A stretch of 64,000 bases of DNA from a virus, in IMG/VR virus record IMGVR_UViG_3300028844_008248, one strand, 5' to 3'. Made by a program: the position numbers and the translations under genes. Positions 9,034-63,657 of the stretch are shown here, piece after piece. The notes under the pieces were generated by a model. The model had not been told where the DNA came from. It made no database searches and saw only the letters and a list, made by a program, of their open reading frames with translations. Within the stretch, counting starts at the first letter, position 1. Each line of letters starts with the position of its first letter.

Positions 9034-9534
9034 ATGAAAAAGAAAAAGAGCAAATATCATCAAGGAAAATTTACTCCAAAGAATCCAGATAAGTATATGG
9101 GAGATGTTAATAATATTATATATAGGTCTGGTTGGGAATTGCGGTATATGAGATTTTTAGACTCTTCTAGCTCTATTAAGAAATGGTGTTCGGAACCATT
9201 CTATATTCCATACATATCCGAAGTGGATGACTGTAAGCACAGATACTTCCCAGATTTCTTGGTATACACAAGAGAGGGGCATGGATATATAGTGGAAGTA
9301 AAGCCGTTGAGAGAGACTAAACCACCACGTAAGACATCAAGGAAGGATACTTACCTAGAAGAACGAAAGCGAAGGTATAGAGAAACGAAACGTTGGGTTA
9401 CATGGAGAACAAATAAATCTAAGTGGGGAGCGGCTGAAGCATTTTGTCAGAGGAATGGATTGCAGTTTAAATTGGTAACAGAGAAATCATTGGGCATCGA
9501 TGGGAAAACATATAAAAAAAAGAAAAGACTTTAA
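9034..9534 (+). CDS. PD-(D/E)xK superfamily nuclease (TnsA/Hjc-like endonuclease fold), 166 aa
   Basis: Motif …RYFPDFLVYTREGHGYIVEVKP… (PD…EVK); only plus-strand gene in a minus-strand region, preceded by late promoter box and followed by hairpin terminator. Confidence 0.5.
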   Translation: MKKKKSKYHQGKFTPKNPDKYMGDVNNIIYRSGWELRYMRFLDSSSSIKKWCSEPFYIPYISEVDDCKHRYFPDFLVYTREGHGYIVEVKPLRETKPPRKTSRKDTYLEERKRRYRETKRWVTWRTNKSKWGAAEAFCQRNGLQFKLVTEKSLGIDGKTYKKKKRL

Positions 9535-37884: not shown

Positions 37885-39123
37885 TTAATCTCCCTTTATA
37901 TTCAATATCTGTTTTAGTGTATGTACAATATCAACCAAATCTTTTTGATTTTCCATAACAACATCAATATCTTTATATGCATCAGGAATTTCATCAATAA
38001 CGGATTGCCTCGTGTTACATACAATTCCTTCCATACGTTCTTCTAAATCTTCAAGAGTATATAAAGTTTTTGCTTTTGATCGTGAGAATCTTCTACCTGC
38101 ACCATGAGAACATGAATTAAAAGATTCTTGATTTCCCTTTCCACGTACAATAAAAGATTTCGCTCCCATAGAGCCGGGTATAATACCCATAGTTCCGGTG
38201 GAAGCATTAACAGCACCTTTGCGGGTAATCCATACATTTTTGCCATAGTGATGTTCTTTGGATACATAATTATGATGACATTGAACAACAGAATCTTTTA
38301 TAATAATATCCTTCTTATTCGAAAATAAATGATAAAACACCCCAAGAATTTGATCCATCATAACCTGTCGATTGTAATATGCATATTGTTGTGCAAGATT
38401 TAATGCTTCGACATATTCATCAAAATATACTGTACCTTCCGATAAGTAAGACAAATCTGCATCGGGAAGATTAATAAAATGTCGTTCCATATCTTTTTTT
38501 GCCAATTTTATATAGTGTTGTCCTATTCTATTTCCAAGATTTCTAGAACCAGAGTGTAGCATAATCCAAATATTATCCGATTCATCAACACACACTTCAA
38601 TAAAATGATTTCCACCACCCAGCGTACCAAGTCGGGAATATCCGTTTTCAAGAATTCGCTCTTTCATTTTTCGATCAGATATAATATGGTCAAATCCGTT
38701 TTCAAACATATTTTTCCATAATTTATCTCGGCTTCTACCCTTCGTGAACTCGTACTTGTTAGATTTAGAATCCTGAAACGATCTTTGATATCCAGATTTT
38801 CCACAAGGAACATTTTTAATTATTCTGTTGTGTAATAAATCTAACGTATTTTCTTTTAAGTCATGAGATGTCAGGTTTGTTTGTACCGCCATCATACCAC
38901 ACCCAATATCAACTCCAACAGAAGCAGGTACAATTGCGCCCGAAGTTGGAATAACCGAACCAACACATGCACCTTTGCCCAAATGAGCATCCGGCATTAC
39001 CGCAATATGTTTATGTATGAATGGAAGATTGGACATATGTTCTAATTGATCGTATGTAACCGAATCAATATCTTCAGTCCAAATCTTTACCGGGAATTTA
39101 CCCTTTGTCATTACCTGTTTCAT
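37885..39123 (-). CDS. rtcB: RNA-splicing/repair ligase RtcB (3'-phosphate/5'-OH RNA ligase), 412 aa
   Basis: Diagnostic …MPDAHLGKGACVGSV…, …HSGSRNLGN…, C-terminal …NSCSHGAGR… metal-binding motifs of RtcB. Confidence 0.85.
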   Translation of the reverse strand: MKQVMTKGKFPVKIWTEDIDSVTYDQLEHMSNLPFIHKHIAVMPDAHLGKGACVGSVIPTSGAIVPASVGVDIGCGMMAVQTNLTSHDLKENTLDLLHNRIIKNVPCGKSGYQRSFQDSKSNKYEFTKGRSRDKLWKNMFENGFDHIISDRKMKERILENGYSRLGTLGGGNHFIEVCVDESDNIWIMLHSGSRNLGNRIGQHYIKLAKKDMERHFINLPDADLSYLSEGTVYFDEYVEALNLAQQYAYYNRQVMMDQILGVFYHLFSNKKDIIIKDSVVQCHHNYVSKEHHYGKNVWITRKGAVNASTGTMGIIPGSMGAKSFIVRGKGNQESFNSCSHGAGRRFSRSKAKTLYTLEDLEERMEGIVCNTRQSVIDEIPDAYKDIDVVMENQKDLVDIVHTLKQILNIKGD

Positions 39124-39134
39124 TTATAACCTCT

Positions 39135-39323
39135 CTAATATGCAATTGCAAAATATAATACATAAAACCAACTAAAAAATCCATGCAATATTGCCCAACC
39201 AATATGATTCCAAGTCGAGTATGAAATTACAATAGCTAACACACAACCAAATCCAATTCCATCTGATACATCTATTTCAGTAGCCATATTATTTCTCTCC
39301 AACTCGATTAATACTGACCGCAA
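39135..39323 (-). CDS. Small membrane protein, 62 aa
   Basis: Hydrophobic. Confidence 0.35.
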   Translation of the reverse strand: MRSVLIELERNNMATEIDVSDGIGFGCVLAIVISYSTWNHIGWAILHGFFSWFYVLYFAIAY

Positions 39324-39489
39324 GTTTTTTATTCTTGGTTTTTCGTATGATATATTCTTCCTTCAATTTTTTATATCCATTTTTATCGGATATATCATAA
39401 CGAGTTATTTTAATTCCATTTTCTTTTCGTACTGTTTTCGTATCTTCATACGATTTGAAAACCATATTATACGCCATATAAAACTCCAT
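39289..39489 (-). CDS. Hypothetical protein, 66 aa
   Basis: ORF. Confidence 0.35.
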   Translation of the reverse strand: MEFYMAYNMVFKSYEDTKTVRKENGIKITRYDISDKNGYKKLKEEYIIRKTKNKKLAVSINRVGEK

Positions 39490-39515
39490 GTTAAAATTAA
39501 ACCAGACTCATACTA

Positions 39516-40421
39516 TCATACAACTTCTGGTTTGTCCATTATAAAATGGGCATAATCCAATAATTCTTCTTTATTTAATTCAAACTCTTCATGAAGTTCG
39601 GTAAGCTTTTTAAGAACTTTTCCAAGTCTCGATCCACTGGAATATCCAAGCTTCAATAAATCCTTACCATTAACCACTGGTGCAGGTTTTTCCTCTAATA
39701 CATCTAAGTCCGTTGCTTGGCTTTCTAACCATCCTGCAAAAGAGAAATCAACTTTTTCTACTGGCGTTCCTCGACCAGCCTGATCAGCTTTCGCTACCCA
39801 AAGTAATTCTGATAACGTTGCTGGATGAAGATTTCTTGCAAGTCGTTTGACCGCACCTTTACCAGCTTTATCTTTATACAAGGTAACAGGCTTCAGATGG
39901 TACTCTACCAACTTCAAAACTTTTGCTGTTGTGGCTTGGTCTACATTTAGTTTTTCGAGAAAGGTTTTAGTAGGAGCCAAACCAGCTTCTTCATGCCCTC
40001 GTGCGAAAGTATCCCATCCACCAACAAAAACTTTTTCCCCAGATTTAAATCCACCATCTTTTACCACTTTCAACACTGGATTATCATACCAAGTAACTTC
40101 TGGCTTTCCTAAGTCATGGCATAATACCGCAAGAAACAAGGTGAACCTTTGCCCATCTTCTAGATCAGAATCGCTTAAAAGCTCACTCAGAGCGTCTACG
40201 ACCATTTTAGTATGGGTCCATACATCACCTTCTGGATGCCAATCAGGACTTTGAAGCGTATCTGCCATATGCCTGAATTCTGGAAAAGTCTTATCAAAGA
40301 GTCCCAAATCCCATGCCAATTGAAGTCCAACAGATGGTTTTGGAGACTTCAAAAAAAGCTTCTTAAACTCTTCTGCAAACCTCTCTTTAGATACTGTATT
40401 TAATGTGTCAGTCATTTTCAT
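39516..40421 (-). CDS. tRNA nucleotidyltransferase (CCA-adding enzyme) C-terminal half: body + HD domain, 301 aa
   Basis: …ERFAEEFKKLFLKSPKPSVGLQLAWDLGLFDKTFPEF… (body) and …LAVLCHDLGKP… (HD motif); own SD GGAG and weak promoter. Confidence 0.7.
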   Translation of the reverse strand: MKMTDTLNTVSKERFAEEFKKLFLKSPKPSVGLQLAWDLGLFDKTFPEFRHMADTLQSPDWHPEGDVWTHTKMVVDALSELLSDSDLEDGQRFTLFLAVLCHDLGKPEVTWYDNPVLKVVKDGGFKSGEKVFVGGWDTFARGHEEAGLAPTKTFLEKLNVDQATTAKVLKLVEYHLKPVTLYKDKAGKGAVKRLARNLHPATLSELLWVAKADQAGRGTPVEKVDFSFAGWLESQATDLDVLEEKPAPVVNGKDLLKLGYSSGSRLGKVLKKLTELHEEFELNKEELLDYAHFIMDKPEVV

Positions 40422-40452
40422 AACTCCATTAGAACATTATTTAGGCTAATTG

Positions 40453-40830
40453 TCAAGTATTTTTTTGATCATCCATTGTTATTTTATTGTCGCCACGAAA
40501 AAAATAATTTAATCGTTTATCCCGTACTCTTTGTTTATCCCGTACTCTAGAAACACTCCATATCCCATCTTTATTTTCTTTATATACAAAAAATCTAAAT
40601 TTATTTGCAATACAAGTAGATCGTTTTACTACATTGTCTGACGCTCTTTTTTTATTATATTTTGCTATTGCCAGTAAATAGTTCCAATTATATTTTTCTA
40701 GAGTTGTTTTGGCTTCGTATAGACCACAACCAGTTTTGGTGCGAAATTTTCTTAGCTGGCTAATTTTATCTCTATTAGTCATTCGAGTCCTCACTCCAAT
40801 CATAATCATCAATACATCCACCATCTTCAC
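40453..40830 (-). CDS. Insert ORF 1 within split CCA gene, 125 aa (EF-Ts-N/UBA-like segment TKTGCGLYEAKTTLEKYNWNYLLAI)
   Basis: ORF within 1.1-kb insertion. Confidence 0.4.
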   Translation of the reverse strand: MKMVDVLMIMIGVRTRMTNRDKISQLRKFRTKTGCGLYEAKTTLEKYNWNYLLAIAKYNKKRASDNVVKRSTCIANKFRFFVYKENKDGIWSVSRVRDKQRVRDKRLNYFFRGDNKITMDDQKNT

Positions 40831-40957
40831 AATTCGGACAATAGTGAACTAGATATTCTGGATTTTCCCAACCCTCAGATACCATTTCGCTATCACATTT
40901 GTCAACTGGAAATCTACCGTTGCATTCAGAACAAATTGCAATGTCTGGAATTAACAT
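40775..40957 (-). CDS. Insert ORF 2, zinc ribbon, 60 aa
   Basis: CSECNG … CPNCEDGGC. Confidence 0.35.
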   Translation of the reverse strand: MLIPDIAICSECNGRFPVDKCDSEMVSEGWENPEYLVHYCPNCEDGGCIDDYDWSEDSND

Positions 40958-41253
40958 TGGTTATGATATCTTTGAAGATCATTATAATATTCTGAAAAAT
41001 ATTTTTCTCTTTCGATATTAAGAATAGCAATAATATCATTTAACATATCTGCTGTTTCTAGTTTTCCGTTTTTTGTAAGAGTATTTGGAAGAGTTGCGGA
41101 AAGTGCAGAAACGTCTTCTACATCTATTTTAACCTTAATATTAATATATTTAATATTTCTTTTTTCATATAAGGCATCAAATTCTTCATCTGTCAATGCA
41201 TCAATATCTTCACTGGTCATTTCATCTAATGTTTTCATATTGTTTCTATCCAT
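40951..41253 (-). CDS. Insert ORF 3, 100 aa, hypothetical
   Basis: ORF. Confidence 0.4.
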   Translation of the reverse strand: MDRNNMKTLDEMTSEDIDALTDEEFDALYEKRNIKYINIKVKIDVEDVSALSATLPNTLTKNGKLETADMLNDIIAILNIEREKYFSEYYNDLQRYHNQC

Positions 41254-41555
41254 TTTTCATCAAATTCTTGAGTCGGTAATTGATGTAATTTGAAAAAATC
41301 TTTGTTTTGTGGATAATCTCTAATATATAATCTAGCATAAAAAGGAATTACATTATTACTAATTTTAAATGAAGTTTGTGGTTTCATAGATACGGAAGAT
41401 AAAAATCGTACAACATGCATGATTCCATATGCAGAATATCTTTTTACTCCCCGCCCAATTAATTCATTTGTTTTTTCTTTAAATACTTCATATATTTCTG
41501 GTTTTTCTTTATGAATATCTTTAAATGTTTTCCAATGAGAATTTAGTTTAGTCAT
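41235..41555 (-). CDS. Insert ORF 4, 106 aa, hypothetical
   Basis: ORF. Confidence 0.4.
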   Translation of the reverse strand: MTKLNSHWKTFKDIHKEKPEIYEVFKEKTNELIGRGVKRYSAYGIMHVVRFLSSVSMKPQTSFKISNNVIPFYARLYIRDYPQNKDFFKLHQLPTQEFDEKWIETI

Positions 41556-42178
41556 AAAACAAGCTCCTTCATTTTATTAAAAGTTTCTGGTTCGACAGTC
41601 AATCCAAAACGACCAGCAAATTGAACTCCACGTAATACTCGAAGTGGATCATCACCAAACGTTTCAGGATCGACCATACGCAAAACACGATTTTTCAAAT
41701 CTTTCAATCCACCAAATGGATCGTGCCATCTACCATTAACACAAGGTCCATTTTCGTCTTCATCCCAAAACAATTCCATAGCAACGGCATTTATCGTAAA
41801 ATCTCTTCGCTTCATTGCGTTCTCCAATCCCATGAATGGATTGAGTTTAACATCAAACCCACAATGCCCAGCCTTAGTTTTAGAATCTGTTCTTGGAAGT
41901 GAAAGATCAAAGTCAAGACCATTCATTTTCATTTTATATACTCCAAAAGATTTTCCAACCTTTGAGTATTCTTCACCAGATTCTTCTAGGTAATGTTCGA
42001 ATTCATTTAAACTCATATTGTGGAATTCAACATCGAAATCATTAACATTCTCAAACATATCATCAGGACCATCTAAATCTGAAAGAGAAACCCATGAGTC
42101 ACGGACACAACCACCAACTAAATATAATTTAGCATGTTCTGGAAACATACTCATTAATGTTCTGAATTCTTTTTTCAT
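41552..42178 (-). CDS. tRNA nucleotidyltransferase (CCA-adding enzyme) N-terminal half: head + neck, 208 aa
   Basis: …LVGGCVRDSW… (GGxVRD), DFDVEF carboxylates, …RRDFTINAVAMELF…, …DPLRVLRGVQFAGRFG… class II NTase motifs; ends where body domain should begin. Confidence 0.75.
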   Translation of the reverse strand: MKKEFRTLMSMFPEHAKLYLVGGCVRDSWVSLSDLDGPDDMFENVNDFDVEFHNMSLNEFEHYLEESGEEYSKVGKSFGVYKMKMNGLDFDLSLPRTDSKTKAGHCGFDVKLNPFMGLENAMKRRDFTINAVAMELFWDEDENGPCVNGRWHDPFGGLKDLKNRVLRMVDPETFGDDPLRVLRGVQFAGRFGLTVEPETFNKMKELVL

Positions 42179-42266
42179 GACATTCCTTAAAAATTTTTAT
42201 CAAGTGGCATGGTGCTTGGTTGCCATCGGTGGCCTCTTAGACCTCACATACACACTTGATAAATAA

Positions 42267-42551
42267 TTAACCAACAATTCCATCGATAACTGATACTAGC
42301 ATATCGGCATATACCATGTCAACACTTTTCTTTACTTTGCGTTCTGCTTTCCAATATTGTACAGCTTCAACCGTGTAGAGGTCTTGACCTTCAACATATT
42401 CAATCGTAATCCAACCACGTTTGAGTTTCGTTCCATTGACTCGAAAAGCAAGAGTTGTTCCGTATGCTTTGTATTCTCTTGCGCCCCATGCTCCCAATGC
42501 CCAAAAATCAGTTGCTTTAATTTGGTCTAGAATTGTTTGCTGAACAGACAT
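42267..42551 (-). CDS. Hypothetical early protein (start at second Met after AGGAG; ORF-track start lies in promoter)
   Basis: Promoter 42589-42616; AGGAGATAAAAACATG. Confidence 0.45.
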   Translation of the reverse strand: MSVQQTILDQIKATDFWALGAWGAREYKAYGTTLAFRVNGTKLKRGWITIEYVEGQDLYTVEAVQYWKAERKVKKSVDMVYADMLVSVIDGIVG

Positions 42552-42588
42552 GTTTTTATCTCCTGAATCATTGTTTATCATGTAACCA

Positions 42589-42616
42589 GTATACCAGAGT
42601 TTTATTCGATGTCAAG
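42589..42616 (-). promoter_or_regulatory. Early promoter TTGACA-N16-TATACT (minus)
   Basis: agtataccagagttttattcgatgtcaa. Confidence 0.65.
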
Positions 42617-42863
42617 AATAAACATCAGATTCTTCAATCTTTCTCCCAAGTAATTTCTCTAGCTCTTTCAATTCACGGTTCAATTCAGCAAGTCGGGATC
42701 GAACTCGACCACCTGATAATTCACCATCACAAGTAAGATTTTCTGGAGAAAGGTCACTAAACACCTTTTCAGCCCATACCAAAATCTCTTCTTCGGTCTT
42801 TGGTAATTTTAATGATGGATCGAATATTTTATCCCATAACAAACGTTTCTTCATTTCTTTCAT
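42612..42863 (-). CDS. Hypothetical early protein, 83 aa
   Basis: GGAG SD; promoter 42907-42934. Confidence 0.45.
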   Translation of the reverse strand: MKEMKKRLLWDKIFDPSLKLPKTEEEILVWAEKVFSDLSPENLTCDGELSGGRVRSRLAELNRELKELEKLLGRKIEESDVYS

Positions 42864-42906
42864 TGTTTATCTCCGATAGGGTTAGTCAAATCTCAATTAC
42901 AAAGAT

Positions 42907-42934
42907 AGTATACCAGAGTTTCGGTAGGTGTCAA
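42907..42934 (-). promoter_or_regulatory. Early promoter TTGACA-N16-TATACT (minus)
   Basis: agtataccagagtttcggtaggtgtcaa. Confidence 0.6.
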
Positions 42935-42937
42935 GTT

Positions 42938-43171
42938 TTATTTAACATGCTGTGCAAAATATCTTTCACGTTTCGAGAGTTCATATCCTTTCGGAAGTCC
43001 TACTTTATTAAGAGTTTTGGTATCATGATATTCAGCCGGATAACCTGCTGTGCGAAGCTCTACAACCTGTTTAACGGCTTTATCTCTCGTATCTACAGGA
43101 AAGGCTTTTTTCCACTCAAAATTGGCTGTACCACCAACTCGATAATATGCAGTAAAAGTTCTTTTAGGCAT
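42938..43171 (-). CDS. Hypothetical early protein (start trimmed to MPKRTF… after GGAG)
   Basis: Promoter 43206-43234 overlaps ORF-track N-terminus. Confidence 0.45.
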   Translation of the reverse strand: MPKRTFTAYYRVGGTANFEWKKAFPVDTRDKAVKQVVELRTAGYPAEYHDTKTLNKVGLPKGYELSKRERYFAQHVK

Positions 43172-43205
43172 CTTCAATCTCCTTTGGTTCGGTTGACTAT
43201 GTAAA

Positions 43206-43234
43206 CAGTATAACAGAGTTTCGGAGTATGTCAA
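43206..43234 (-). promoter_or_regulatory. Early promoter TTGACA-N17-TATACT (minus)
   Basis: agtataacagagtttcggagtatgtcaa. Confidence 0.55.
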
Positions 43235-43530
43235 TGTTTATTTTCGGGTATGTAAAAGAAGGTGGGACGTTCTGTTTCTAGGTGTCCCAAGCCCAAGGCA
43301 ACTTTACGCCGCCAATGCTAGATCGTAATCATTTGCATTTATAATCTGATAGATTTTTTACTAGGCCAACTATCATCCTAGTGCTGTCTTAAAGATTATT
43401 ATATCCAATCGAATCCAGTTCGCCCCCATGAAAAAAGTGTATTGCACTTCTCGTTTTGATTATTATCCAATTTCGACATGTCAGAATAATAAACTAGATG
43501 GGGTTTCAACCATGAACAATACACTCTTAT

Positions 43531-43560
43531 GGTGGAGGCGGTGGGTATCGAACCCACGTC
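43531..43560 (-). other. Orphan tRNA 3' fragment (T-arm + acceptor 3' strand + CCA) with no matching 5' half
   Basis: minus strand …CGTGGGTTCGATACCCACCGCCTCCACCA; no complementary GGAGGCG within 150 nt. Confidence 0.45.
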
Positions 43561-43595
43561 TTAAATACTTTCGTCAATAAGATTATACAGCAATA

Positions 43596-43982
43596 TTATA
43601 CTATGTTGTACATACCATCCAATTTTGTAATACCATCTTGAAGATATGTTGGTATTGATTTATGTTCTTTTGTATTATCAAATACTGATAAAAATTTATT
43701 ACCATCTACTCCGGGGTTTGTACAAATCATTGTGAATTCAGGACCACGATAAACCCACTTAGGTAAAAATCGTTGTGTGTATATTCCATCTTGATACCAC
43801 TGACCCAACTCCACAACATCTTTTTTAGATTCCCAATATATTACATGATCTTTTTCAGTCGGATCAATATACCAAAAATAATTTAGTTTTGACTCCATAG
43901 GAATAACAACCCAATCTTCTTGATATCCGAAATATTCATAAATTTCATTTTGTAATTTAAAATATTCACCCAATAATTTCAT
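43596..43982 (-). CDS. Hypothetical protein, 128 aa
   Basis: ORF. Confidence 0.45.
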   Translation of the reverse strand: MKLLGEYFKLQNEIYEYFGYQEDWVVIPMESKLNYFWYIDPTEKDHVIYWESKKDVVELGQWYQDGIYTQRFLPKWVYRGPEFTMICTNPGVDGNKFLSVFDNTKEHKSIPTYLQDGITKLDGMYNIV

Positions 43983-44488
43983 ACAGTAATTCCTTTCTCA
44001 TGTAACTTCGCTTTCAAAGATTCTTCATCATCATCCGTCCAATTATCTTGCCATACTTTCAACAACGTTTTATACACCAGATAATTTGGATAATATTTTG
44101 GAGAATCCCAAATCCAATTATCACTTCGACTACCATTTCTAATAACTGATAACGCACTAGCAACTCCAGAACTACGAGATATTCCAGCATAACAATTCAC
44201 ACAAATTAAATCTATATTATCTTCATAATATTCAGTAAAATCTATAATGTCTCTTGCGTGTGATTCGTTAAATGGAATTATATCAGGATCAATATTACCT
44301 TCCCAATCTTTATTATCACTCACGTCATCAAACGTTAATTGTAATACATCCATCCTGTTTGGATCGGCTAGTAATTCTGCGAACCCATGACTACCATCAG
44401 GATGTTTCCCGGCAATTGATATTAATACATATGGTTGATCCCCGATATATTTTTCTATGTTTTGTTGGCTAAAAATTTTAAATATCAT
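43979..44488 (-). CDS. Cysteine-based phosphatase (dual-specificity/PTP-like, CX5R motif), 169 aa
   Basis: …ICVNCYAGISRSSGVA… = (V/I)xCxAGxxRS P-loop of Cys-phosphatases. Confidence 0.6.
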   Translation of the reverse strand: MIFKIFSQQNIEKYIGDQPYVLISIAGKHPDGSHGFAELLADPNRMDVLQLTFDDVSDNKDWEGNIDPDIIPFNESHARDIIDFTEYYEDNIDLICVNCYAGISRSSGVASALSVIRNGSRSDNWIWDSPKYYPNYLVYKTLLKVWQDNWTDDDEESLKAKLHEKGITV

Positions 44489-44832
44489 TTAATGTCTTCT
44501 CCATATTCAATTTTTAGATTTTCTTCACGCATGGCAACATCCACTATATCATTAATTTTTTTGTTCATTTCATCAAAAGCAGACGCTCTTTTTGCTAACT
44601 CTACTTTTATCCATTGTTTAAATTTATCGTTGTTGGTTAGTCTTTTAAATGCGTTCTTTTTATTTTGTTCAAGACTTTTTGAATCAGCACCAGTAGCCAT
44701 CACCCCACTTGCTCTATGGAATATTCTAACACAATTTTTGTGTTTGTTTCTGTGTTGTCCACCAGCACCAGACCCAGAATAAAAACTGATCTCAAAATCC
44801 TTTTTTGTCATTCCAAATATATGTTCTCTCAT
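44485..44832 (-). CDS. Peptidyl-tRNA hydrolase, ArfB/ICT1-like release-factor-family GGQ protein, 115 aa
   Basis: …SGSGAGGQHRNKHKNCVRIFH… GGQ motif + basic C-terminal tail. Confidence 0.65.
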   Translation of the reverse strand: MREHIFGMTKKDFEISFYSGSGAGGQHRNKHKNCVRIFHRASGVMATGADSKSLEQNKKNAFKRLTNNDKFKQWIKVELAKRASAFDEMNKKINDIVDVAMREENLKIEYGEDIK

Positions 44833-61110: not shown

Positions 61111-61186
61111 TGGTACTCTCGGTAGGATTCGAACCTACACTGAATGCATTCTAAGTGCATTGCCTCTGCCGTTGGGCTACGAGAGC
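61111..61186 (-). tRNA. tRNA with anticodon TAG (Leu-type anticodon) but class-I (short variable arm) architecture
   Basis: Manual fold: acceptor GCTCTCG/CGAGAGT, anticodon stem ATGCA/TGCAT loop CTTAGAA, T-loop TTCGAAT, A73, CCA. Confidence 0.55.
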
Positions 61187-61211: not shown

Positions 61212-61329
61212 TGGTACTCCGGGCAGGAATCGAACCTACACATCACGCCATTATATCATTGAGATATAATAGTTATGGATAAGGTCTCTAATATAATCTT
61301 GTTGCCTCTTCCATTTGGGCTACCGGAGT
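61212..61329 (-). tRNA. tRNA-like gene with about 40-nt internal insertion (perfect 7-bp acceptor ACTCCGG/CCGGAGT, canonical T-arm GGTTCGATTCC, CCA) spanning 118 nt
   Basis: 3' part reads as canonical tRNA; complementary 5' acceptor strand found 118 nt upstream; internal AT-rich hairpin TTATATC…GATATAA. Confidence 0.35.
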
Positions 61330-61466
61330 GTAATTTCTCGTACAGTTTTTTCTATGATATATTATTTTTATTCTTCTTTTTTTATTTCTTGGCTTATTTT
61401 CATTTCCAACTTCAAATTTTCCTATTTTTTTATTGCAATGTGAACAAAATAAAGTATATAGGAAAC

Positions 61467-62033
61467 TCACAACACATATATTGAAATATTTATATCATGA
61501 AATATATTAAGAATTATATTTTCTATAGTTTCCCAATCACCACCACCAAGTCCTGTTCCGATTTTTGGAATTGCTAAATTGGAGAAATTATTATTTGAAA
61601 ATAATTTTAAACTTTGTATACAATCTCTAATTGCCCCATAATCTACATATTGGGTTCCATCAGAACCATAGTTTTTCTGTGTTGCACAATTAATTATGTA
61701 TTTTGTTTCATAATATGGTTTGTGGTTTGCTCTTGGTGGTCCACCAATAACAAAAGGAGGTTGTTCCACTTGGACTTTTACTGGTTGAATATCTCCAAGA
61801 AACCACCCATAAGGCGAATATATTTTTCCATCATTATATTTTTTCAAATATGCTTCTCGAACTTCTGGATACTGTTGTGCTATCTGTCCTGCAATACCAG
61901 AACCAAATCCACCAGAACAATTTACTCCATGTGCAATAGCACCTATTCGATCATCTTTAAGAGCATCTAGAATATTTCCTTTTTGGAGTATAATCATGAT
62001 AGTCCCATTAACGTTAAATAATAATATAAACAA
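61467..62033 (-). CDS. Macro-domain protein (ADP-ribose binding / de-ADP-ribosylating), 188 aa
   Basis: …GAIAHGVNCSGGFGSGIAGQI… and …AIPKIGTGLGGGDWE… Macro domain signature blocks. Confidence 0.65.
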   Translation of the reverse strand: MFILLFNVNGTIMIILQKGNILDALKDDRIGAIAHGVNCSGGFGSGIAGQIAQQYPEVREAYLKKYNDGKIYSPYGWFLGDIQPVKVQVEQPPFVIGGPPRANHKPYYETKYIINCATQKNYGSDGTQYVDYGAIRDCIQSLKLFSNNNFSNLAIPKIGTGLGGGDWETIENIILNIFHDINISIYVL

Positions 62034-63580: not shown

Positions 63581-63657
63581 TGGTACTCCCGGTTGGACTC
63601 GAACCAACACTTTATGGATTTTAAGTCCACTGACTCTGCCAATTGGCCTACAGGAGC
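63581..63657 (-). tRNA. tRNA with anticodon TAA (Leu-type anticodon), class-I architecture, paralog of 61111..61186
   Basis: Acceptor GCTCCTG/CGGGAGT, anticodon stem GTGGA/TCCAT loop CTTAAAA, T-loop TTCGAGT, A73, CCA. Confidence 0.55.

Follow-up and report, generated by a model that had tools for sequence, protein, structure and literature searches.

The window analysed here, a stretch of 64,000 nucleotides (nt) of viral DNA (IMG/VR record IMGVR_UViG_3300028844_008248), belongs to a T4-like myovirus, as indicated by Pfam matches to gp5, gp6, gp53, gp32, gp59, a T4 baseplate protein and RNase H. On its minus strand, running 61329→61212, lies a tRNA-like gene for a 118-nt RNA that includes an encoded CCA. 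Judged by comparison with its orthologue, this gene has no conserved or restorable anticodon arm, its D and T arms are under strong purifying selection, and the change that its acceptor stem has undergone is structure-preserving. We consider it probable that the product is a selected tRNA-like RNA that does not decode. On balance we also favour the fuller reading, in which it would be a conserved non-decoding RNA derived from the short tRNA-Leu family of the phage and acting off the ribosome.

The gene has the layout ACUCCGG-UA-GCCC AAAUGGAAGA GGC-A-[63 nt]-GUAGG UUCGAUU CCUGC-CCGGAGU-A-CCA. Its parts are listed below together with the adjacent normal tRNA; L054 is the contig that carries the orthologue, and bit scores refer to the Rfam tRNA family RF00005.

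61212..61329, minus strand: whole tRNA-like gene, 118 nt; RF00005 29.9 bits (orthologue at L054:698-814, 30.2 bits).
61323..61329, minus strand: 5' strand of the acceptor stem, ACUCCGG, RNA nt 1-7; 7/7 pairs with 61216-61222.
61304..61322, minus strand: U8, A9 and the Leu-type D arm, GCC(C) AAAUGGAAGA (A)GGC; aligned to the D arm by Rfam, 19/19 identical to L054.
61240..61303, minus strand: interior, 64 nt; a 41-column surplus over nine normal Leu tRNAs.
61268..61303, minus strand: 5' 36 nt of the interior, the sole part alignable with L054; core UAGAGACCUUAUCCAUAACUA against UAGAUAACCUAUCUAUAGCUA.
61248..61272, minus strand: 10-base-pair (bp) AU hairpin, CUAUUAUAUC-UCAAU-GAUAUAAUGG; in the minimum free energy (MFE) fold, absent from L054.
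61223..61239, minus strand: T arm, GUAGG UUCGAUU CCUGC; 5/5 pairs in both orthologues.
61212..61222, minus strand: 3' strand of the acceptor stem, CCGGAGU, with discriminator A73 and encoded CCA, read from the sequence; A73 also in L054.
61111..61186, minus strand: normal tRNA-Leu(UAG), found by ARAGORN, Rfam 60.5 bits; 25 nt downstream of the tRNA-like gene.

The RNA thus has a fully paired acceptor stem, A73, CCA, U8, A14, G18G19 and a UUCGA T loop, and its D arm has a 3-bp stem with G18 and G19 in the loop. What it lacks is a standard anticodon arm (5-bp stem, 7-nt loop, U33), in the place of which the covariance model inserts 56 nt. The interior comprises position 26, 58 nt of AU-rich sequence replacing the anticodon arm, and a 5-nt equivalent of the variable loop, GAUGU. 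An earlier note on this DNA had described a 3' T arm with acceptor strand and CCA, a matching 5' acceptor strand (ACTCCGG) 118 nt away, an internal insertion of roughly 40 nt and, in an AT-rich interior, a 7-bp hairpin TTATATC/GATATAA. All of this is borne out: the T arm is canonical and the CCA encoded, the acceptor strands pair at every position, the surplus forms one 41-column block, and the hairpin is real and extends to 10 bp around a 5-nt loop. The likeness noted between the 3' end and that of the tRNA at 63581-63657 is also correct (CCGGAGUACCA versus CCGGGAGUACCA).

A permissive Rfam scan matched RF00005 over 61215-61329; at 29.9 bits against a gathering score of 29 this is a marginal pass, and its E-value was 2e-4 locally and 0.035 when the whole window was scanned. 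In both orthologues the model matched the acceptor, D and T arms and skipped the anticodon arm. The tRNA model thus matches across the full span, so that the outcome which the earlier note had named as refuting, no such match, did not occur. Default ARAGORN and the fast-filtered Rfam scan both miss the gene, which is the only aberrant tRNA hit in the whole-window Rfam scan. The RNA has an MFE of -34.5 kcal/mol (z = -3.25), and 0/200 shuffles were equally stable.

Bacterial tRNA-Leu is normally of the long-variable-arm type. The Leu tRNAs of this phage group are all of type-I length (76-79 nt, with a 5-nt variable loop) and share a D stem of 3 bp, a D loop of the form AAnnGGnAGA, A73 and an encoded CCA. 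Such short Leu tRNAs are seen in the window at 61111-61186 and 63581-63657, and in L009, L010, L012, L053, L054 and L218. When compared with nine normal-length Leu tRNAs, the tRNA-like gene aligns from end to end save for the 41-column block, which falls at the anticodon-arm region. A search of GenBank phages returned matches to the D-arm segment alone, in genes annotated as tRNA-Leu, and BLAST found the long form in no deposited GenBank phage. The gene shares with the short type-I tRNA-Leu of the phage group and of GenBank phages the design of the acceptor, D arm and T arm, A73 and CCA, and lies in the same cluster; it differs in having 41 extra nt and no anticodon stem-loop. By this alignment the gene derives from the short tRNA-Leu family of the phage and has gained ~41 extra nt in its anticodon-arm region. 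As a description, the earlier note's suggestion of an inserted element in a tRNA is therefore right.

Related contigs were retrieved via the flanking macro-domain, AAA_28 and zinc-ribbon proteins. In one of these, L054 from JGI sample 3300009515, an over-long tRNA-like gene of 117 nt occupies 698-814. The AAA_28 protein of L054 is 81% identical to that of the window in a global alignment, and gene order is shared through the primase-like, dNMP kinase, NUDIX and RNR genes. The order in L054 is a normal tRNA-Leu(CAA) at 611-687, then the long gene, then tRNA-Leu(UAG), so that the long gene lies immediately upstream of tRNA-Leu(UAG) in both genomes. Because it occupies the same slot in both, and because L054 also keeps a normal tRNA-Leu(CAA), the long gene is a separate and inherited gene, not a damaged copy of Leu(CAA). 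No orthologue other than that of L054 was found in IMG/VR, JGI metagenomes, GTDB genomes or GenBank phages; the search also covered IMG/VR relatives of two flanking proteins and a large protein collection, queried with three flanking proteins (12 contigs). In farther relatives the slot holds Leu(CAA) only (L012) or nothing (L010/L011 and L218/L219), which restricts the long gene to a narrow lineage.

The 5' end of the gene overlaps an open reading frame (ORF) of 60 amino acids (61288-61470, minus strand; GTG start, CxxC motif, no Pfam hit) that comes after the macro-domain gene. This ORF enters the 5' 42 nt of the tRNA-like gene and its stop codon is a UAG inside it. A CxxC ORF of 38 amino acids stands at the equivalent place in L010.

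To set a neutral level, four-fold degenerate sites of four flanking genes were compared between the window and L054; 201/327 are identical (61.5%; chance, 37%). Positions 8-26 of the long gene are identical at 19/19 sites and so are the GU and T arm (19/19). The combined D and T blocks, at 38/38, stand far above the neutral level (0.615^38 ~ 1e-8), and the adjacent normal tRNA-Leu(UAG), at 62/77, falls below them. In the acceptor stem three of seven pairs have changed on both sides between the window and L054 (pair 1 from A-U to G-C, pair 3 from U-A to C-G and pair 6 from G-C to U·G), and all six substitutions keep pairing. Across the acceptor, D and T stems of the two orthologues 30/30 pair-cells are paired, compared with 29-50% in slid controls. 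The interior as a whole is ~60% identical, which is the neutral level. Its 5' 36 nt are alignable (25/36 identical; alignment score p < 0.001 versus shuffles), its 3' ~27 nt align no better than random sequence (p = 0.58), and its length is nearly kept (64 nt in the window gene, 62 nt in L054). As far as this comparison reaches, constraint falls on the top half and elbow of the tRNA, opposite to the pattern of a pseudogene.

The proposal that the gene is an intron-containing tRNA was examined by enumerating every single excision of the interior; a product counted as restored when no fewer than 4 pairs formed in the 5-bp anticodon stem, the 7-nt loop carried U33 and the variable loop measured 4-6 nt. 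No single excision of the window interior yields even a 4/5 stem with U33, and in L054 the products are poor, with AAA or AUA as the only anticodons, U37 in the loop and a stem that is mismatched. Perfect arms for Leu(UAA), Pro(UGG), Arg(UCU) and Val(UAC) were regained in seven insert-bearing phage tRNAs that served as positive controls. A tRNA-Tyr(AUA) with a 25-nt intron, proposed by the intron mode of ARAGORN, was rejected as its anticodon stem has only 3 bp. The AU hairpin can be read as UAUAU-CUCAAUG-AUAUA ('CAA', with U37); a contiguous anticodon arm inside the interior is found only in the window gene, at chance level (13.5% of composition-matched shuffles), and none is found in L054. 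Furthermore, the strongest interior hairpin of each orthologue is missing from the other. Bulge-helix-bulge (BHB) motifs occur in 16-18% of shuffles and lie at non-homologous positions in the two genes. A group I intron was excluded by size, the surplus being just 41 nt against ~200 nt or more for the catalytic core, and by the lack of an Intron_gpI match. No intron, ribozyme or other Rfam family was found on the insert (E ≤ 10 at the locus; whole window scanned). With no restoring excision, no conserved anticodon-like hairpin or BHB and no group I intron or ribozyme match, the intron proposal finds no support.

Several other identities for the interior were rejected. A class II tRNA would need a 14-nt 'anticodon loop', a mismatched ACAAG/CUUAU stem and a 39-nt variable region, and the AU hairpin, were it a class II variable arm, is not conserved in L054. 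A duplex of D arm and insert, considered as a possible conserved switch, is predicted at -11.2 kcal/mol in the window gene (reached by 1.6% of shuffles) and is unexceptional in L054 (46%). The single copy of the interior and the lack of any antisense target of >12 nt in the window speak against a repeat, a mobile element or an antisense RNA. As for an internal promoter, a perfect extended -10 box, TGATATAAT, lies on the transcribed strand at 61250-61258 and L054 has TATAAAT at the aligned position; the motif is not enriched in the AT-rich window (11 observed versus 7.6 ± 3.0 expected), and no σ70-type two-hexamer site was called in either gene. The conserved core of the interior has no tRNA-linked occurrences in IMG/VR, and no model of transfer-messenger RNA (tmRNA) matches at the tRNA-like locus.

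The reading that we favour proposes the following course. The RNA would be transcribed together with the tRNA cluster, cut at its 5' end by RNase P, and trimmed or repaired at its 3' end to CCA, possibly by the phage's own CCA-adding enzyme. It would retain the 7-bp acceptor helix, A73, CCA, U8/A14, G18G19 and the UUCGA T loop, which together make up the top half and elbow of the L-shape; its anticodon arm would have given way to ~58-60 nt of AU-rich sequence without conserved secondary structure. Such a molecule could probably be leucylated, because bacterial leucyl-tRNA synthetase (LeuRS) uses A73 and the tertiary core and not the anticodon arm. For the Aquifex enzyme the critical elements are A73, U8-A14, G18-U55 and G19-C56, and aminoacylation does not require the anticodon arm (PMC2377443). 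The corresponding elements of the RNA (A73, U8-A14 and the G18/G19-T-loop core) are all present. No decoding on the ribosome would be expected. Since it could not decode, the RNA would most likely act off the ribosome, occupying a protein that recognises the body of tRNA or of tRNA-Leu. Its role might be that of a decoy or sink in a tRNA-centred conflict, to which the phage genes for RtcB, CCA-adding enzyme, tmRNA and an RF-1-domain protein point, or that of a dedicated leucyl carrier; the evidence does not discriminate between these two.

These parts of the proposal are not equally secure. That the RNA is in fact leucylated is a tentative claim, which we hold less likely than not, and that it works specifically as a decoy is doubtful. 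Rather unlikely, in our estimate, is a broader scheme in which an end-matured, leucylated tRNA-Leu mimic, barred from the ribosome and serving as decoy or carrier, would be one face of a larger population of insert-bearing tRNAs whose inserts would need splicing with the RtcB ligase and possibly RNase P.

A number of observations weigh against a selected, leucylated RNA acting off the ribosome. Removal of the anticodon arm abolishes editing by LeuRS (PMC2377443), and E. coli LeuRS charges type-I (short) tRNA-Leu poorly (PMC6614811), so charging would depend on the enzyme of the host. Pfam identified no tRNA nuclease, synthetase or aminoacyl-transferase among 60 window ORFs that were scanned, most of which are unannotated. 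In L054 the letters after A73 (815-817) are ACA instead of CCA, while neighbouring L054 tRNAs encode CCA, and the L054 RNA would therefore need 3' trimming and a CCA-adding enzyme. The absence of the gene from L010, L012 and L218 implies that it is young and dispensable. The conservation of the 5' 36 nt of the interior (25/36) could mean that the insert itself matters. Finally, with two orthologues only, covariation statistics are weak (shuffle control 69/500), and the lack of structure in the interior is drawn from the single comparison of window and L054.

The alternatives were weighed against the same evidence. It is unlikely that the gene is an interrupted tRNA, cut by an unknown endonuclease and sealed by the phage RtcB into a working leucine tRNA, perhaps with a CAA anticodon. 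The phage does encode RtcB, and many phage tRNA genes hold 34-52-nt inserts whose excision restores perfect tRNAs. The hairpin loop CUCAAUG resembles the CUCAAAA loop of the L053 tRNA-Leu(CAA), ARAGORN sees no normal Leu(CAA) gene in the window, and with a BHB-like arrangement that places B1 at nt 40 and B2 at nt 67, excision of 27 nt would give AUUAUAU-CUCAAUG-AUAUAAU. The arm so produced has 12 layers instead of 5 bp, however, and the frequency of such motifs in shuffles and their displaced position in L054 argue against a real splice site, as does the failure of every single excision to give a canonical arm. L054 has no anticodon-like hairpin and keeps its normal Leu(CAA) next door, the would-be anticodon-arm region is the least conserved part of the gene, and there is no match to the recurrent insert family described below. 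Among BHB-splicing enzymes RtcB is present, but no EndA-like endonuclease domain was found in a scan of 60 window ORFs, many of them unannotated. We judge it more improbable still that the tRNA body is a chassis lending processing and stability to an inserted RNA that is the active part, such as a small regulatory or protein-binding RNA. Such a layout, with cargo in place of the anticodon arm, is that of engineered tRNA scaffolds. The conserved 5' part of the interior has a shared core, UAGA.A.CCU.AUC.AUA.CUA, which in the window gene can pair with the gene's own D arm. Against this, the interior is at the neutral level overall and random in its 3' part, the orthologues have no common secondary structure, the D-arm pairing does not stand out from shuffles in L054, and neither an antisense target nor tRNA-linked occurrences of the motif were found. 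A chassis, moreover, would not need 38/38 identity in the D and T arms.

A tRNA-Leu pseudogene, disrupted by an insertion, decaying and still undeleted, is very improbable: it would account for the lacking anticodon arm, the near-neutral rate of the interior, the loss of the encoded CCA in L054, the variable slot that is empty of the gene in L010, L012 and L218, and an Rfam score barely at threshold, but not for D and T blocks that are conserved above both the neutral level and an adjacent functional tRNA, for acceptor substitutions that without exception keep pairing, or for the kept length of the interior. Least probable of all, and only marginally credible, is a role in transcript processing or at the DNA level, either as RNase P punctuation between the upstream mRNA and the downstream tRNA and genes or as an internal promoter. 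The position of the gene between protein-coding genes and tRNA-Leu(UAG), and the extended -10 box with its aligned counterpart in L054, would suit it; the box is not enriched and no two-hexamer promoter accompanies it in either gene, the normal tRNA 25 nt downstream already gives an RNase P site, and an invariant D arm would not be required. The intron and pseudogene readings are thus disfavoured. The earlier note's overall reading is thus supported in part: the inserted element stands, and its other two options are not supported in view of the excision evidence and the conservation of the D and T arms.

The closest precedent for a non-decoding tRNA-like RNA of this kind is T4 species 1 RNA, to which it is not homologous. 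Species 1 (rnaC) and species 2 (rnaD) likewise lie in a T4-like tRNA cluster and are over-long (139 and 119 nt, compared with 118). Like the RNA described here, rnaC combines a canonical T arm (CCGGG UUCGAAU CCCGG) with an adjoining 3' end that is acceptor-like, and AU-rich hairpins replace the anticodon arm. Unlike it, rnaC has no recognisable D arm and scores 17.5 bits, to tRNA-Sec, whereas our gene scores 29.9 bits to the general tRNA model and has a full Leu-type D arm, A73 and CCA. BLAST found no match of our gene to T4, and the resemblance to rnaC and rnaD is one of position and architecture only. Phage tRNA clusters have been known for fifty years, from species 1 and 2, to hold stable non-tRNA RNAs of unknown function. 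The present gene may be a cleaner case, a recognisable leucine tRNA in which the decoding arm has been replaced and the enzyme-binding half selected. It also predicts a specific biochemistry, namely an RNase P substrate with a CCA end that would be leucylated yet take no part in decoding. As a decoy or carrier, it would add RNA mimicry to the conflict between phage and host over tRNA cleavage and repair.

Other systems resemble the gene in part. Intron-containing tRNAs (archaeal and eukaryal BHB introns, bacterial group I introns in tRNA-Leu(UAA)) share with it extra sequence in the anticodon-arm region and an RtcB gene in the genome, but our gene is not restored by excision, has no conserved BHB and is too short for group I. 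The tRNA-like domain of tmRNA is also the top half of a tRNA without an anticodon, charged by a synthetase that ignores the anticodon (alanyl-tRNA synthetase there; LeuRS proposed here). In contrast to tmRNA, our gene lacks pseudoknots and a tag reading frame and its D arm is complete, and the phage encodes a separate tmRNA (43213-43622). Insert-bearing phage tRNAs are similarly over-long (99-137 nt); their acceptor stems are perfect and their anticodon arms hold inserts of ~40-50 nt. They differ in that their inserts have a conserved, covarying structure and excise to give canonical tRNAs.

When IMG/VR was scanned with patterns for over-long tRNA genes, dozens were found whose acceptor stems are perfect, some in arrays of at least four per contig (L032, L051 and L052). 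One recurrent family, which we call 'hairpin + ACAGCAAUU', has a 38-52-nt insert after nt 28-29 of the anticodon stem, at position 29/30. The insert begins with a variable leader, continues with a 7-bp hairpin that has compensatory changes at each of its pairs, and closes with an invariant ACAGCAAUU. It is found in tRNAs for Pro, Arg, Val, Asn and other amino acids, and its excision restores perfect tRNAs. With filters switched off and a limit of E ≤ 10, the model of this family (R1) matched neither 61212-61329 nor L054:698-814, so our gene is not a member. Sites of the family are:

L032:1550-2219.
L051:1319-2029.
L146, at ~4474, 4992 and 5121 (identical in L211).
L038, region of 3133.
L025, regions of 8226 and 8463.

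The second family, 'mini-helix-ACCA', is a 46-49-nt element that interrupts the anticodon loop of tRNA-Leu(UAA). It folds into a 7-bp stem with a stacked hairpin (5 bp, 7-nt loop) followed by ACCA, in effect a nested acceptor/T-arm mini-helix, and 9/12 of its pairs are compensatory. The 5' boundary of the element might be an RNase P site. Our gene has none of the features of this family, which occurs at the following sites:

L019 (= L024, L026, L034).
L028:167-289.
L029:1799-1920 (= L035).
L038:5287-5408.
L049:2136-2256.

Neither insert family has a BHB motif or an Rfam family. No description of short inserts in phage tRNA genes was found in the full-text literature, and the two structured families are apparently undescribed. 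One contig of the 'hairpin + ACAGCAAUU' family also has, within 5 kb, genes for RtcB and for a CCA-enzyme head domain. For the inserts of either family to be removed, bacteria or their viruses would have to possess a tRNA-splicing pathway. Over-long tRNA genes make up a sizeable class in viral metagenomes that standard tRNA finders miss, and some of them have conserved structured inserts. This matters for phage tRNA counts, for studies of code reassignment and for the question of protein-dependent tRNA splicing outside archaea and eukaryotes.

Three further over-long genes are of Leu type and lie on AT-rich viral contigs: L032:2102-2219 (= L014), L052:2518-2636 (= L016) and L020:5082-5187. Their A-rich inserts contain degenerate forms of the motif, UCAGCAUUA, UCAGCAACC and ACUGCAAUU. 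In those of L032 and L052, as in our gene, no single excision restores an anticodon loop with U33; the insert of L020 was judged by eye only. Directly downstream of an over-long tRNA-Leu, L038:5409-5466 gave a weak match to a ribozyme like that of hepatitis delta virus (RF02682, 27.3 bits; threshold 44), reminiscent of the 'theta' ribozymes reported beside phage tRNAs (PMC10879173). In cellular genomes the over-long pattern mostly reflects a partial 5' tRNA fragment fused before a complete tRNA-Leu gene. Cases of this are seen in L061-L065, L082, L092, L093 and L097 (Actinomycetospora genomes) and in L060, L073 and L078; they look like tandem partial duplications such as are left at integration sites.

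Besides the tRNA-like gene, the window holds six normal tRNAs and a permuted tmRNA. A cluster of RNA-repair and ribosome-rescue genes occupies 37885-44832 on the minus strand, given here as context only:

37885..39123, minus strand: RtcB RNA ligase; Pfam PF01139, E = 1e-130.
39516..42178, minus strand: CCA-adding-enzyme-like gene in two ORFs, one with the head domain and one with the RNA-binding and HD domains.
41552-42178, minus strand: CCA-enzyme head domain; Pfam PF01743, E = 6e-16.
39516-40421, minus strand: CCA-enzyme RNA-binding domain (PF12627, E = 2e-10) plus HD domain.
43213-43622, minus strand: permuted two-piece tmRNA with tag ANDYDLALAA; tRNA/tmRNA search and Rfam.
44485-44832, minus strand: RF-1-domain GGQ protein; Pfam.

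The four small ORFs between the two parts of the CCA enzyme have no Pfam hit. Phage RtcB and CCA enzymes have been read as repairing tRNAs cut by host nucleases (PMC7824862). Elsewhere in the window, at 9034-9534 on the plus strand, a TnsA-like or endonuclease I-like ORF stands on the strand opposite to the adjoining baseplate and tail genes and is possibly a mobile or homing-type insertion.

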